In this document: positions 9,231 to 14,221 of the stretch, one piece after another
Layout: each line of letters opens with the position of its first letter
Numbering within the stretch: the stretch's first letter is position 1
Assembly (NCBI GenBank): GCA_964355095.1
Contig: CAYHCX010000008.1
Coordinates: 7,320 to 64,465, forward strand
Origin: an uncultured Acidobacterium sp.
GTDB lineage: Bacteria; Acidobacteriota; Vicinamibacteria; Vicinamibacterales; UBA2999
DNA length: 57,146 nucleotides
Direction of reading: 5' to 3'
The notes under the pieces: model-generated
What the model saw: the letters and a program-made list of their open reading frames with translations, nothing else
The model's database searches: none
What the model was told of the DNA's origin: nothing
Position numbers and translations under genes: made by a program

Positions 9231-10334
9231 GTGAAGATCGAAAAGATTGAGTTGTTCCTGTGCCGCCTGCCGCTCGTCCATTTCTTCGAAACGAGCTTCG
9301 GCCGGTCCTACGACCGCACCTTCGTGCTCATCCGGGTGGAAGGGGACGGTCAGGAGGGCTGGGGCGAGTCGGTCGCCGAGGCCGACCCCTACTACAGCAG
9401 CGAGACCACCGAGACGGTGTGGCACATCATCCAGGGGTTCATCGCGCCGCTGGTGGTCGGGCAGACCTTCGAGCATCCCCGTGACGTCTTCCCGGCGCTG
9501 CACCGCATCCGCGGCCACAACATGGCCAAGGCCGGGGTCGAGATGGCGGCCTGGGATCTCCATGCCCGGCTGGCCGGGCAGCCGCTGGCCAAGGCGCTGG
9601 GCGGCACCCGCGACCGCATCGCCTCCGGCGTCTCCATCGGCATCCAGGACTCGTTCGATCAGCTGCTCGAAAAGATCGAGGGCGAGCTGGCCGCCGGCTA
9701 CCAGCGCATCAAGATCAAGATCAAGCCCGGCTGGGACATCGAGGCGGTCGAGCGCATCCGCGCCCGGTTCGGCAACATCCCGCTCCAGGTGGACGCCAAC
9801 GCCGCTTACACGCTGGACGACGCCGACCTGCTGGCCCGGCTGGATCCGTTCGACCTGCTGCTCATTGAGCAGCCGCTGGATTACGACGACGTGATGGATC
9901 ATGCGGTACTGCAACGGCGGATGAAGACGCCCATCTGCCTCGACGAATCCATCCACACCGTGCGCATTGCCCGCGACGCCATCGACGCCAAGGCCTGCCG
10001 CATCATCAACATCAAGCCGGGCCGCGTCGGCGGCCATCGCGCCTCGATCGAGCTGCACGACCTGTGCGCCGCCCACGACATTCCGGTGTGGCATGGCGGC
10101 ATGCTGGAAAGCGGCATTGGCCGCGCCCACAACATCCACCTGGCCAGCCTGCCGAACTTCCGCCTGCCGGGCGACATCGCCGCGAGCAAGCGCTATTACC
10201 AGCCGGACCTGATCGAGCCGGCCATCGAGGTCAGCGCCGACGGCACCATCGCGGTCCCGACCGGCCCGGGCATTGGCGTCAACATCGTCCGCGAGCGGAT
10301 CGACCAGGCCACGTTGCGACACATTTCCTTATGA
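9231..10334 (+). CDS. menC: o-succinylbenzoate synthase / N-succinylamino acid racemase (enolase superfamily)
   Basis: FETSFG, KIKIK, DAN, EQP, LDES, NIKPGRVGG, GGMLESGIGRA, LPGD..ASKRY. Confidence 0.92.
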   Translation: MKIEKIELFLCRLPLVHFFETSFGRSYDRTFVLIRVEGDGQEGWGESVAEADPYYSSETTETVWHIIQGFIAPLVVGQTFEHPRDVFPALHRIRGHNMAKAGVEMAAWDLHARLAGQPLAKALGGTRDRIASGVSIGIQDSFDQLLEKIEGELAAGYQRIKIKIKPGWDIEAVERIRARFGNIPLQVDANAAYTLDDADLLARLDPFDLLLIEQPLDYDDVMDHAVLQRRMKTPICLDESIHTVRIARDAIDAKACRIINIKPGRVGGHRASIELHDLCAAHDIPVWHGGMLESGIGRAHNIHLASLPNFRLPGDIAASKRYYQPDLIEPAIEVSADGTIAVPTGPGIGVNIVRERIDQATLRHISL

Positions 10335-12415
10335 CCCCAACGCCGTCACCACGCGCGCTGGTCGCGCTTGTCGCGTTGCTTGTTGCCAGCGGGTGCGGTC
10401 CGAAAGTCGCGCCGCAGGTCAGCGCCACGCCCCCGATCACGGCGTTCGATCAGAAGATGCGCTGGATTCTCCAGCTCGAGGACGAGCGGCAGCTCAAGGG
10501 CGGCGGCGGCGACCTGCTGGCGCTGCTGCAGGATGCCGAAGCCCGCGTGCGGCGGCGCGCGGCGCTGGCCACCGGCCGCGTGCGCCTCGCCGACGCGGTG
10601 CCCGGCCTGGCCACGCTGGTGCAGGGCGACAGCGACCCCGAAGTCCGGCAGATGGCCGCGTTTGCGATGGGGCTGATCGGCGACGCCTCGGCCGCCCCGG
10701 TGCTGACCGCGGCGCTGACCGATGCGGATCCGCTGATCCAGGGCCGCGCCGCGGAAGCCCTGGGCTTGATCGCGCACCGGCCGGCCGCGGCGGCGATTGG
10801 CGCCATGGTCGCGGCGCACGTTACGGCCGGCGTGCTGAATGGGCTGAATGCGGATGACATGGGCACGCCCAAGCCGCCGCCGGTCGAGGCCGTGCGGCTC
10901 GGCGTGTATGCGCTGGTGCGCCTCGGGTCCTACGAGGCGCTGGCCGCCGGCGTGCTCGACCCCGCCGGCCAGCCCAGGAGCCGCTGGTGGCCGGTCGCGT
11001 TTGGCCTGCAGCGGATCAACGACGCCCGCGCGGCCCCGGCGCTGCTGGCGCTGCTCACGGGCGATGGGCAGCTCACCCGCGCCTTCGCGGCCCGGGGACT
11101 CAGTGTGTTGAAGGACCAGCGCGCTGCCGCGCCGCTGCTGGCAATTGCCGCCAGCGTCGGCGAGCCGCTGGCGGTGCGGGCCCAGGCGGTGCGCGGCCTG
11201 GCGCTGCTCGGCGACCCGCGCGGCGCCCCGGTCCTGATGCGGCTGATCTCGTCGCCCCAGGTCGATCACAACCTGCAGCTCGAGGCCATCGTGGCGCTGG
11301 GCCAGTTGCGCCAGGCCAACGCCGTGGACCTGTTGGTGGACCTGGTCTCGGCGGAGTGGCCGTCCGTGCGCGCGGCCGCCCTGCTTGCCCTGGCCCGCAC
11401 CGACGTCGACACCTTCATCTCCGCGATTTCGGGGCTCGACCCCGATGTCCACTGGTCGGTGCGCGCGGCCATGGCGTCGGCGCTCGGGGAGCTGCCGAAA
11501 GAACGCGCCGAGGCGGCGCTGAGCAACATGATGCGTGACGCCGATCAGCGCGTGCTTCCCTCGGTGATCGATGCGCTGGCCAAGGTCGGGTCGGCCGGCG
11601 CCGCCGCGGAGATAGTCGCCCGCCTCAAGGCCGATGACCCGGTGGTCCGGGCCGCCGCGGCGCGCGGGCTCGCCACGCTCAAGGCTCCCGGTGCCGCCAC
11701 CGCGCTGACCGAGGCGCTCGCGCTGTCGCAGCGTGACGGGCTGTATGTGGCGAGGACCGCCGCGCTTGATGCCCTGACCGCCGTCGATCCGGCGGCCGCA
11801 CGGCCGCTGCTGACCGCGGCGCTCGGCGACAAGGATTGGGCGGTGCGGCTGCGGGCGGCGGAAGACCTGCGGAAGATAGACGCCGGCACCGACGTGTCGG
11901 CGATGCGTCCGGCGCCGCCGCCCACGGTGCCCGAGCTGGCGGCCGTGGGCACGTTCGTGTCTCCCCAGTACTCGCCGTCGGCGTACATCGACACCTCCAG
12001 GGGCACCATTCAGGTCGAGCTGGCCGTGCTCGATGCGCCCCGCACGGTGGCCAACTTCATCGCCCTCGCGCGCAAGAACTACTTCCGCGGCGTGCAGATC
12101 CACCGCGTCGTGCCCGACTTCGTGGTCCAGGACGGCGACCCGCGCGGCGACGGCGAGGGCGGTCCCGGCTACACGATTCGCGACGAGATCAACCAGCGGC
12201 CGTACCTGCGGGGGACCGTGGGCATGGCGCTCGACTGGGCCGACACCGGCGGCAGCCAGTTCTTCATCACGCACTCACCGCAGCCGCACCTCGACGGTCG
12301 CTACACGGTGTTCGGACAAGTGGTGTCGGGGATGGATGTGGTCGATCGCCTGCAGCAGTGGGACACGATCGAGCGGATTCGAGTCTGGGACGGGCTGAAC
12401 TGGATCGGTCAATAA
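10331..12415 (+). CDS. HEAT-repeat lipoprotein with a C-terminal cyclophilin-type PPIase domain
   Basis: Lipobox-like VASGC; many D..VR.AAA.ALG repeats; HRVVPDFVVQDGDP, GSQFFIT, HLDGRYTVFG; ATGA overlap with the menC stop. Confidence 0.88.
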   Translation: MTPTPSPRALVALVALLVASGCGPKVAPQVSATPPITAFDQKMRWILQLEDERQLKGGGGDLLALLQDAEARVRRRAALATGRVRLADAVPGLATLVQGDSDPEVRQMAAFAMGLIGDASAAPVLTAALTDADPLIQGRAAEALGLIAHRPAAAAIGAMVAAHVTAGVLNGLNADDMGTPKPPPVEAVRLGVYALVRLGSYEALAAGVLDPAGQPRSRWWPVAFGLQRINDARAAPALLALLTGDGQLTRAFAARGLSVLKDQRAAAPLLAIAASVGEPLAVRAQAVRGLALLGDPRGAPVLMRLISSPQVDHNLQLEAIVALGQLRQANAVDLLVDLVSAEWPSVRAAALLALARTDVDTFISAISGLDPDVHWSVRAAMASALGELPKERAEAALSNMMRDADQRVLPSVIDALAKVGSAGAAAEIVARLKADDPVVRAAAARGLATLKAPGAATALTEALALSQRDGLYVARTAALDALTAVDPAAARPLLTAALGDKDWAVRLRAAEDLRKIDAGTDVSAMRPAPPPTVPELAAVGTFVSPQYSPSAYIDTSRGTIQVELAVLDAPRTVANFIALARKNYFRGVQIHRVVPDFVVQDGDPRGDGEGGPGYTIRDEINQRPYLRGTVGMALDWADTGGSQFFITHSPQPHLDGRYTVFGQVVSGMDVVDRLQQWDTIERIRVWDGLNWIGQ

Positions 12416-12445
12416 ATCCCTGAATCCCTAAATCTCCAATTCGCC

Positions 12446-12477
12446 AAATAAAAAAGGGAGGCGACTGCGCCTCCCTT
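12446..12477 (-). terminator. Rho-independent terminator
   Basis: 10-bp stem AAGGGAGGCG/CGCCTCCCTT with a 4-nt loop and a T-run on the minus strand. Confidence 0.85.
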
Positions 12478-12501
12478 CCGATCTTCTGGCTGACGAAGCG
12501 A

Positions 12502-12555
12502 CTAGCGCTTCTTCGCCTTCTTCGCTGCCTTCTTCTTCGCTGCTTTCTTTGCCAT
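12502..12555 (-). CDS. 17-aa Lys/Ala-rich micropeptide MAKKAAKKKAAKKAKKR
   Basis: ATG...TAG, purine-rich RBS (GAAGGGGGGG) about 7 nt upstream, a paralogue nearby and a terminator downstream. Confidence 0.75.
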   Translation of the reverse strand: MAKKAAKKKAAKKAKKR

Positions 12556-12700
12556 TTGTAATCCCCCCCTTCCGGTTGGGTTATGCGTAAGAACCTAGCC
12601 GCTGCACGACTTGCCTCTGCCGCCTGGCACTCGGCTCATCCATGCCGGCGTTCTCGCGCCTCGTTACGCGACGTGATGATTCACGCGCGCGGTCTTGGTG

Positions 12701-12732
12701 AAAAGGGTGGGGCAGTCTGTGAGAACCGCCCC
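12701..12732 (-). terminator. Intercistronic hairpin / weak terminator
   Basis: GGGGCGGT-loop-ACTGCCCC followed by acccTTTT, just after the upstream micropeptide stop. Confidence 0.5.
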
Positions 12733-12742
12733 TGTAAGCGGC

Positions 12743-12793
12743 CTAGCGCTTCTTGGCCTTCTTCTTCGCCGCCTTCTTTGCCTTCTTCGCCAT
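12743..12793 (-). CDS. 16-aa Lys/Ala-rich micropeptide MAKKAKKAAKKKAKKR
   Basis: ATG...TAG with AGGAG 7 nt upstream; lies downstream of a near-consensus promoter. Confidence 0.78.
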   Translation of the reverse strand: MAKKAKKAAKKKAKKR

Positions 12794-12898
12794 TGTTCTC
12801 TCCTGATGGGGGGTGACTCTTGCCTGATGGCGACCGCTGATTGTTTTTACGTGTTCACAATCAGTGGCCTGAGCCTTGCTCCCTCATACCAGATGTAG

Positions 12899-12926
12899 AT
12901 TATGGATGAGAAATTCATCTTGTCAA
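12899..12926 (-). promoter_or_regulatory. Sigma-70 promoter for the micropeptide unit
   Basis: TTGACA-N16-CATAAT; the spacer contains the inverted repeat GATGA-N5-TCATC; a second TTGACA lies at 12945-12950. Confidence 0.7.
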
Positions 12927-13027
12927 GCACAAAGCGTTTGTGATTGTCAACAAACGGGCCAATCGCTCCAGCCGATCGCGCCCTCAAGAGGAGGTGTCGG
13001 ATCGTCGCCCACGGATCTGTAGGCTCG

Positions 13028-14221
13028 CTATCGGCTCTCGCGTCGCATGCGCTGCGCGCGGGCCAGCGCGCCGGCGGGCGCGGCGGGCGCGGCGGCGATG
13101 ATTGCATCGAGTTGATCGATGGCGGCGCTCGTCCGCTTGAGCGCGCGCAGCTGCCGCGCCATGTTCAGGCGCGCCACCGTCTCCGCCAGCGCCGGCCGGT
13201 TCACCGATTCGGCGCGGGCCAGCGCGAGCAGCCGCTCCGAGGCGCGAAGGCTCGCCTCGGGGTCGTGAAAGTACTCGTCCAGGATCTCCGCCTCGATTCT
13301 GTAGAAGAGCGGATTGTGCGGGTAGTGCTCCTGCAGCGCGCGGACCATGCCGATGGCCTCGCGCCACTTGTTTTCGTACCAGAGGTAGATGACGTGGATC
13401 TGGAACTGCGCCTCGCCGCGAACCAGCTGGCCCTGGGTGGCGGCGCGCTCGATCTGCCGCAGCCCCTCGACCCGGTTGCCGCCCGGGAGCCTCAGCAACC
13501 AGCGCAGGAACTTCAGCGCAGCCGGCGCCACGTCGGCGTAGTAGCGGTACATGCCGATGCCGAATTCCGCGTCGTGCATGGCCGGGTCCAGCGCCAGCGC
13601 GCGCTCGAGCGCCGCCTTGATCCGCTTGCCGTCTCGCGCCGCCGCCAGCCGCTCGACCCGGTGCACGCGCCACTGCGCCCGCGCGCCGTAGGCGGCCCCG
13701 AGGTAGAACCAGCCCTCGGCGCGATGGGGTTCGGCCTCGGTCATCCGCTCGGCATCGGCGATCGCCTCCTCGACCTTGGCCTTGAACGCCGGATCGAGCG
13801 CGAGGCTCTCGGGATCCAGTTGAATCTGCCACCACAGGCTCAGGGCCTCGAGGCCGAGGCAGGCGACCTGCGGCGCCGGGCTTGTCCCGCCGAAGCCCTT
13901 GGGCGAAGGCGGACCGCAGGTGGCAGGCAGGTCCGCCCGCAGCCGATCGAAGTCGGCGTCGAGAATGGCGTCGTAGGCCTTGGCGACGAGTGGCGCGGCG
14001 GTGATGCCGGTGGCGGCTGTAGCGTCCGCCTTCTTGACCGCCGAAGCCTGCGCGGAGGTGGTTAGGCGGACCTGGGCCTGCCGCGAATCAGCCCGGCTGA
14101 CCGCCTTCGCCGAGGCTTCGGCGCTCAAGAAGCCGGACGCCACATTGACAAAGAGCACCGCCGCCACGACCAGGGCGACGGGAAATCTTGTTGCGCCGAA
14201 GCCTTGGCGAAGGCGGATCAT
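13028..14221 (-). CDS. Secreted TPR-repeat protein with repeat-derived insertions
   Basis: TPR helices (AEGWFYLGAAY, ALERALALDP), hydrophobic N-terminus, ATGA coupling to ddl. Confidence 0.8.
   Translation of the reverse strand: MIRLRQGFGATRFPVALVVAAVLFVNVASGFLSAEASAKAVSRADSRQAQVRLTTSAQASAVKKADATAATGITAAPLVAKAYDAILDADFDRLRADLPATCGPPSPKGFGGTSPAPQVACLGLEALSLWWQIQLDPESLALDPAFKAKVEEAIADAERMTEAEPHRAEGWFYLGAAYGARAQWRVHRVERLAAARDGKRIKAALERALALDPAMHDAEFGIGMYRYYADVAPAALKFLRWLLRLPGGNRVEGLRQIERAATQGQLVRGEAQFQIHVIYLWYENKWREAIGMVRALQEHYPHNPLFYRIEAEILDEYFHDPEASLRASERLLALARAESVNRPALAETVARLNMARQLRALKRTSAAIDQLDAIIAAAPAAPAGALARAQRMRRESR
13881..14217. repeat. Four ~30-nt CAAG-ended palindromic elements, one nested in a GTAG-REP
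   Basis: Copies at 13881-13913, 14033-14062, 14100-14129 and 14187-14217, consensus about WCCGCCTTCGCCNAGGCTTCGGCGNNCAAG. Confidence 0.8.

Follow-up and report, generated by a model that had tools for sequence, protein, structure and literature searches.

Several described systems come close to the locus reported here. Lysine- and alanine-rich, histone H1-like sequences are represented in bacteria by the chlamydial protein Hc2, and AlgP and the C-terminal tails of HU are further cases of this kind. Protamines are arginine-rich and eukaryotic, and polyamines are made by enzymes. Here we describe a pair of tandem micro-open reading frames (ORFs), ORF-A and ORF-B, encoding lysine/alanine peptides of 16 and 17 amino acids (aa). 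They lie in a stretch of 57,146 nucleotides (nt; hereafter, the window) of contig CAYHCX010000008.1, from a metagenome-assembled genome (MAG) of an uncultured member of the order Vicinamibacterales, phylum Acidobacteriota. Members of this order (Acidobacteria subdivision 6) occur widely in soil and fresh water and have been little studied. On the minus strand, ORF-A (MAKKAKKAAKKKAKKR, followed by TAG) reads from its ATG at 12793 to its TAG at 12743, and ORF-B (MAKKAAKKKAAKKAKKR, followed by TAG) from an ATG at 12555 to a TAG at 12502. The two belong to a real, conserved, transcribed and unannotated family of micro-proteins that is apparently unpublished as far as we have searched.

Each peptide contains ten basic residues, and acidic, aromatic and large hydrophobic residues are missing from both. 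Methionine ahead of alanine is usually removed, and the des-Met products, of 15 and 16 residues, each consist of nine lysines and one arginine, the remainder being alanine. Across 193 peptides of the family the composition is 54% lysine, 27% alanine, 10% glycine, 5.5% arginine, 2.3% threonine and 0.8% valine, so that lysine and arginine together make up about 60%. The ends are nearly fixed, with MAKK at the start of 191 of the 193 peptides and KKR at the end of 176. Length ranges from 13 to 48 aa, and 60 distinct peptides occur among 108 tandem loci. A charge of about +10 in 15–16 residues, with no hydrophobic side chain beyond alanine or valine, leaves no room for membrane insertion or a folded core and suggests that the peptides bind polyanions.

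Among known proteins, the likeness to HC2 (chlamydial Hc2, PF07382) lies in the low-complexity lysine/alanine composition and the lack of acidic and hydrophobic residues, and charge-driven binding of nucleic acids would be expected of both. HC2, however, exceeds 100 aa, whereas the peptides described here span 13–48 aa, have no Pfam match, carry fixed MAKK and KKR ends, and come from tandem duplicate genes with two dedicated, conserved RNA leaders; DNA binding is in their case only inferred. With protamines, viral DNA-condensing peptides and polyamines they share small size, high positive charge and low complexity, with bulk neutralization of phosphate as the presumed common effect. This is an analogy only and implies no link by descent. 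The peptides are best filed as an extremely small form of lysine-rich, polycationic nucleic-acid-binding proteins.

The other precedents are tiny ribosomal proteins. In the parts of PMC10085706 that treat them, bS22 is a protein of 33 aa, 55–65% basic, which was unannotated and found only by cryo-electron microscopy (cryo-EM), and bL37 was likewise unannotated and found by cryo-EM (PMC10085706). Across genera, the same parts give identities of 85% and 37% for bS22, and for bL37 the same length with 67% identity; both proteins keep their length and sequence, and their hydrophobic residues form a defined helix in a pocket of ribosomal RNA (rRNA) (PMC10085706). As far as that account goes, the lysine/alanine peptides resemble bS22, bL37, bTHX and eL41 in being very short (at most about 40 aa in the ribosomal proteins), more than half basic and missed by gene callers. 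They differ in ranging from 13 to 48 aa, in being nearly pure lysine, alanine and glycine, and in matching no model, and they do not show the constancy of length and sequence across genera described there for bS22 and bL37.

Database searches agreed with the original prediction, which had recognized no described family this small. Six members of 23–30 aa matched no family in Pfam (at E up to 1) or NCBIfam. For a 45-aa member, proteins of 24–79 aa in 5.8 billion clusters yielded no relative at an E cut-off of 0.001, a search in which low complexity may suppress homology scores, and eight members of 30–48 aa were absent from a collection of 15 billion proteins. One member is present letter for letter in the ESM Atlas, where the nearest clusters are "hypothetical proteins" of 31–40 aa. 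Of the clusters that have a name, the closest in the protein atlas bears the HC2 (H1-like) label in only 17% of its members, at a score of 0.90, and is thus no more than a lead. No literature on the exact peptides or on this family was found, supplementary peptide lists lying outside the search.

Coding signature and range of the family

The strongest coding test compares the two copies within one genome, and 64 of the 108 tandem loci have copies of equal length. In these 64 pairs, differences at the first, second and third codon positions number 43, 45 and 341, corresponding to 314 synonymous and 47 non-synonymous codons. The 30-nt flanks of the paired ORFs mismatch at 75% of positions before and 69% after the ORF, and are therefore unrelated. 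Both ORFs specify the same peptide in 42 of the 108 tandem loci, yet 227 of their 658 codons (34%) differ. Such identity cannot stem from recent gene conversion; it is the peptide that is kept constant. A pattern that imposes no reading frame gave 33 matches, every one of a length divisible by three. The Shine-Dalgarno block of ORF-B has seven invariant positions among 127 distinct sequences. The original prediction had proposed protein-level selection on two ORFs with unrelated flanks, and these comparisons bear it out on both points. Together, they point to strong purifying selection on both ORFs at the level of the peptide. ORF-A and ORF-B are thus very probably real protein-coding genes, and we infer from their sequences that they are translated in vivo.

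The conservation of ORF and ribosome-binding site that had been looked for in relatives is found across the order. Of 41 related genomes, 39 match the 521-nt unit at the DNA level (23/24 of the genus and 15/16 from other families of the order), and all 38 of the relatives' loci that were read carry MAKK...KKR ORFs with ATG and Shine-Dalgarno sites. Within the genus, both ORFs are present in 23 of 23 loci, with ATG starts, TAG or TAA stops and the same ribosome-binding sites; ORF-A encodes 14–18 aa and ORF-B 14–19 aa. In other families, at least one MAKK... ORF was found in 15 of 15 loci and two in 10 of 15, with lengths of 13–30 aa and alanine often replaced by glycine or threonine.

Scanning one genome per species for a leader motif, ATAATCTACATCTNGTATGNNGG, returned at least 120 contigs, nearly all of those listed being titled Acidobacteriota, Vicinamibacterales or Vicinamibacteria. 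A MAKK... ORF lies downstream of the motif in 118 of the 120 listed loci, with ATG, stop and Shine-Dalgarno site kept; in the other two the contig ends 47 and 82 nt past the motif. Among the listed loci, 75 are tandem, 14 have a single ORF directly after the leader, and 29 have lost ORF-A and kept ORF-B, which by this comparison of sequences is the more durable copy. The single ORF is 28–48 aa long in 9 of those 14 loci, some species thus having one long ORF in place of two short ones. Because genomes may be duplicated between the two routes by which they were collected, and because relatives are not independent, these locus counts describe breadth and are not statistics.

The original prediction proposed a search for the locus across Acidobacteriota, but the conserved locus turned out to be limited to one order. 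The 15-nt leader motif occurs in 28 of 401 genomes sampled across the phylum, including 12 of 12 other genomes of the window's family and most families of the order, and is found in 0 of 7 sampled genomes of one family and 0 of 3 of another within the order. The 23 genomes that match an ORF pattern, ATGGCNAARAAR-N15-45-AARAARCGNTAR, all belong to the order (the source genome and 22 of 36 others), and the pattern has 0 matches among 364 sampled genomes outside it (0/2 from the other order of the class and 0/362 elsewhere). As far as sampled, the unit appears confined to the order Vicinamibacterales. Four matches to the leader motif among the 364 genomes outside the order were rejected, lying in unrelated sequence with no MAKK ORFs and no more frequent than matches to a reversed-pattern control.

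Four of the listed contigs (L104, L119, L170 and L174) come from MAGs titled cyanobacterium, Acidimicrobiia, Bifidobacteriaceae and Thermoleophilaceae. They carry the order-specific leader, three of them with MAKK ORFs, the contig of L170 ending 47 nt after the motif. These four contigs are probably mislabelled or mis-binned.

Most of the sampled families have the unit, which is strongly promoted and seen in metatranscriptomes, yet neither gene callers nor profile libraries detect it. The family offers a good test case for annotating ORFs of fewer than 20 codons. The analysis extends the original prediction by showing that both leaders are conserved, that most families have a terminator after ORF-A, that peptides reach 48 aa, that the unit is confined to one order as far as sampled, and that RNA contigs cover it.

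Promoter, leaders and RNA of the unit

The unit occupies about 450 nt of the minus strand and comprises a promoter, leader A, ORF-A, a hairpin, leader B, ORF-B and a terminator, with every element of the original prediction (promoter, leader, both ORFs, hairpin and terminator) found where it had been placed. The sigma-70-type promoter, TTGACA-16 nt-CATAAT (12899–12926), matches the consensus at 11 of 12 positions. It is the sole promoter-like site in 12000–13500, where shuffled sequence averages 0.2, and a scan of that interval found no second sigma-70-like promoter. At the other end, an intrinsic terminator (12445–12479) consists of a 12-bp G+C-rich stem (12479–12452) and a U run (z −3.41; 0/200 shuffles as stable), and other families have an equivalent terminator, AAAAGGGGGCG...CGCCCCCUUUUU, after ORF-B. 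The claim that this is a dedicated transcription unit is upheld.

Abutting the −35 box on the same strand is an upstream element (12927–12950) made of a second TTGACA (12950–12945) and CACAAACGCTTTGTGC; this interval holds a T-rich run and the inverted repeat CACAAA-N3-TTTGTG. Within the source genome, CTTTGTGCTTGACA occurs exactly only at 12927–12950, with seven further matches at two mismatches. The layout of T run, TTGACA and CACTTTGTGC recurs at loci of other families, where it takes the form TTTTTGACA...CACTTTGTGCTTGACA. It may be an UP-like element or a regulator site.

Leader A (12794–12894, minus strand) is about 100 nt long, with a predicted transcription start near 12894 and an AGGAG Shine-Dalgarno site at 12804–12800. 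DNA conservation between families is highest over the promoter and the transcript's first 70–80 nt (67–84% identity), with matches starting at or near the promoter (query position 27 onward), and the 5' end of the leader, CUACAUCUGGUAUGAGGG, is nearly invariant. The leader folds with a minimum free energy of −34.3 kcal/mol (z −3.26; 0/200 shuffles as stable). The structure is predicted to be closed by the helix GGCUC/GAGUC and to include a long inner hairpin as well as a small one, GCC-AUCA-GGC; the GGG of the invariant 5' part would pair with the C run that immediately precedes the Shine-Dalgarno site. Other families have GCUCAG/CUGAGC as their closing helix, with a GUGG/CCAC extension, and their inner hairpins differ.

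With mixed MAFFT alignments, RNAalifold returned four pairs for leader A and none for leader B, a result of inner hairpins that differ between families and of alignments that are not structure-aware, and a column-pair scan of the leaders was noisy. The leader helices were therefore scored as named helices, with pairs counted in each sequence. In 40 leaders of other species, the ten pairs of the closing helices are paired in 81.5% of cases, compared with 22–41% when the strands are slid. Twelve cells have changed on both sides, 0 of 500 shuffles reach the covariation score, and one pair switches from G-C to A-U in five sequences. This support for the closing helix of leader A is real but modest, and the remainder of the fold is a prediction.

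The hairpin after ORF-A (12701–12732, minus strand) has a 9-bp stem (12732–12709) followed by CCCUUUUC, with −16.6 kcal/mol and z −2.2, and is probably a weak, leaky terminator. In most other families a GGGGGUG...CACCCCC hairpin with a long U run stands after ORF-A as a strong terminator, and in those families ORF-B may be transcribed by read-through or from another type of promoter. The stem begins 10 nt past the ORF-A stop, so that a terminating ribosome would overlap it. This spacing, and the strong terminator found there in most families, would suit a scheme in which ORF-A is a lysine-rich leader peptide that attenuates the terminator behind it, sensing lysyl-tRNA or translation capacity. 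Described leader-peptide attenuators govern downstream genes on the same strand, however, and here only a second copy of the peptide, a terminator and a convergent cyclophilin gene follow ORF-A, none of which offers a biosynthetic or transport function that could be regulated. Of the two copies ORF-B is moreover the better kept, ORF-A being the one lost in 29 of the 120 listed loci, and the peptide sequence itself is under selection. We therefore consider attenuation by ORF-A very improbable.

Leader B (12556–12700, minus strand) is about 145 nt long and ends in the G-rich Shine-Dalgarno sequence GGAAGGGGGGGAT (12573–12561), onto which a CCC...GGG pairing is predicted. It forms a long imperfect stem-loop tipped by GUGCCAGGCGGCAG (12630–12617; z of the fold −3.03); in 73 of the 104 listed loci this motif stands 67–82 nt upstream of the ORF-B ATG. 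Pairing in the 4-bp helix at the apex reaches 93.1% over 127 sequences, but covariation is weak (seven cells) and one slid control reaches 90.5%, so the tip is best called a conserved motif. At three loci (L028, L034 and L035) and 29 of those numbered L097–L216, leader A is kept, ORF-A is lost or degenerate, and the sequence runs into leader B and ORF-B. Leader B also contains GUGCCAG, which resembles the 16S 530 loop, but such a likeness is expected by chance for a 7-mer.

In Rfam 15 both leaders scored below the gathering thresholds, the best matches being CsrC (15.3 against 61 bits, E 0.043) and STnc390 (19.3 against 50). The two undescribed leaders are candidates for new cis-regulatory RNAs. 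An alternative reading is that the unit works as an RNA, small regulatory or protein-sequestering, with ORFs that would be incidental or translated only to stabilize the transcript. Cross-family conservation does peak at the promoter and the first part of leader A and not at the ORFs, both leaders fold better than shuffles, and the CsrC-like match, though weak, is of such a kind. Against this stand the 341 of 429 differences that fall at third positions, the peptides that stay identical while 34% of codons differ, the ATG, stop and Shine-Dalgarno site kept in 118 of 120 listed loci, and the lack of any Rfam family at threshold. We give an RNA-only function very little weight.

The expectation of a transcript was supported by RNA libraries. 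Eighteen runs recorded as RNA contain part of the stretch, four of which were compared in detail as assembled contigs; runs with small word shares (X5 and X7–X20) carry no weight here, and parts left uncovered in the four are no evidence of silence. In a freshwater metatranscriptome, a 722-nt contig is identical to 12149–12839 at a depth of 181.7, compared with depths of 2.8 and 5.2 for flanking contigs of the same run on the side of the upstream tetratricopeptide-repeat (TPR) gene. In another study, a 329-nt contig is identical to 12482–12810, with nothing else of the 1.8-kb stretch. Both contigs span ORF-A, the hairpin and ORF-B. Two further runs (X3 and X6) yielded only short pieces on the ORFs, with 92–95% likeness. 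The unit is present in RNA libraries, and the contigs are compatible with one bicistronic, abundant RNA.

The match between the deep contig (run X1) and the window breaks off exactly at 12839, beyond which the contig has 31 further letters that do not match. That position lies in the loop of the inner hairpin of leader A, where related species insert an extra hairpin. The departure suggests a co-occurring strain variant.

Possible roles of the peptides

We tentatively favour a reading, by analogy with other small polycations, in which the products act as free counter-ions of nucleic acids or other polyanions. The near-consensus sigma-70-type promoter would start an RNA of about 450 nt, whose folded 5' leader would deliver the AGGAG ribosome-binding site to ORF-A. 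The hairpin past ORF-A would end some transcripts and pass others, leader B would present the G-rich ribosome-binding site of ORF-B, partly paired to the CCC run, and the strong terminator would close the unit. As free, disordered polycations, the peptides would bind polyanions by charge (chromosomal DNA and/or RNA, possibly polyphosphate), neutralizing and compacting their targets as histone H1 tails, protamines or polyamines do, and the two leaders would set the amount of peptide made. The drift in length from 13 to 48 aa, and the replacement of two short genes by one long gene, favour bulk, non-specific binding over a fixed site. If bulk binding of DNA or RNA is indeed their role, these peptides would be smaller than any known bacterial chromatin-like or RNA-coating protein and would exemplify charge management by encoded peptides.

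Several observations weigh against this interpretation. The near-fixed MAKK and KKR ends and the identical copies in many genomes suggest a constraint more specific than charge. The genome already encodes larger lysine/alanine-rich proteins and polyamine-synthesis domains, so that no missing polycation needs replacing. As for the evidence beneath it, the period-3 repeats (AAG, GCN) could favour in-frame slippage, so in-frame indels alone weigh less, and the RNA contigs give no strand, ends or fair level and come from libraries that DNA may contaminate. The deep contig also spans 267 nt of the 3' end of the convergent cyclophilin gene. Two specific substitutions were tested and rejected. A substitute for absent polyamine synthesis is contradicted by spermidine-synthase and ornithine/arginine-decarboxylase domains in the genome. 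Replacement of the ribosomal protein bS21 is contradicted by a sample of the order in which 78 of 81 genomes have Ribosomal_S21, among them 6 of 6 others of the family; Ribosomal_S21 was not found in the source assembly, most likely because of an assembly gap in this 96.7%-complete MAG.

The main rival proposal is that the peptides are lineage-specific, ribosome-bound micro-proteins, a "mortar" in rRNA pockets like bS22, bL37, bTHX and eL41, with autoregulatory leaders. Their size, basicity and missed annotation match such precedents as bS22, within what PMC10085706 covers, and the strong conserved promoter, the structured leaders conserved across the order and the strong purifying selection on the peptides would all fit a ribosomal protein. 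The known tiny ribosomal proteins, however, keep their length and sequence in the same account, whereas this family ranges over 13–48 aa with 60 distinct peptides at 108 loci. It also lacks hydrophobic residues, and ORF-A has been lost in 29 of 120 listed loci. No NCBIfam or Pfam ribosomal model matches the peptides, Thx (PF17070) has no match in the genome, and the presence of bS21 in 78 of the 81 genomes means that no small ribosomal protein is being replaced. We regard ribosome binding as unlikely, though not negligible; if true, it would add a new lineage-specific ribosomal protein.

The counter-ion reading can also be extended to the leaders. The peptides could be autoregulated, polyamine-like counter-ions whose level in the cell stays steady because free peptide binds both leaders, and perhaps the ORF-A terminator, shutting off its own translation or read-through. 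We consider this extended form quite unlikely. Were it true, the Vicinamibacterales would maintain a ribosomally made, autoregulated polycation economy for nucleoid and RNA, of a kind not described in bacteria.

Genomic setting and neighbouring genes

Downstream of the unit, and convergent to it, a plus-strand gene (10064–12415) encodes a 783-aa fusion of HEAT repeats and a cyclophilin-type prolyl isomerase, ending at 12415. The upstream neighbour, on the minus strand of the unit, encodes a 397-aa TPR protein and ends at 13028, and beyond it on the same strand lies a gene for a D-Ala-D-Ala ligase (Ddl), identified by domain matches. Of the 120 listed loci, 106 have the convergent cyclophilin gene, 86 have Ddl upstream on the strand of the unit and 80 have the TPR gene; about 93–99 are long enough to show the neighbours. 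The neighbourhood of ddl, TPR gene, unit and cyclophilin gene is fixed across the listed loci.

The recurring ddl gene might hint that the peptides are exported, as antimicrobial or envelope-bound polycations, and free bS22 and bL37 are described in PMC10085706, in the parts that treat them, as inhibiting the growth of other bacteria in disk assays. The lysine/alanine peptides, however, have no signal peptide and no hydrophobic face, and the three neighbours examined (HEAT-cyclophilin, TPR and Ddl) include no transporter, immunity or modification gene. Ddl itself gives strong matches to the two domains of D-Ala-D-Ala ligases (E 1e-72 and 6e-35), making it an ordinary cell-wall enzyme, and a fixed neighbourhood can be inherited gene order. 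Export is in our view highly improbable.

The source genome comprises 4.23 Mb with 66.7% G+C. In a six-frame scan of all of it, ORF-A and ORF-B were the only free-standing short lysine/alanine-rich ORFs; a third micro-ORF candidate, on contig C66, was rejected as the C-terminal tail of a 909-aa protein. Larger lysine/alanine-rich open frames occur in the same genome at C77:1673–2446 (258 aa), C62:6343–7059 (239 aa) and C5:72179–72610 (144 aa), and the 909-aa protein with its lysine/alanine tail spans C66:5967–8693. These frames and the tail are candidate H1-like proteins or tails.

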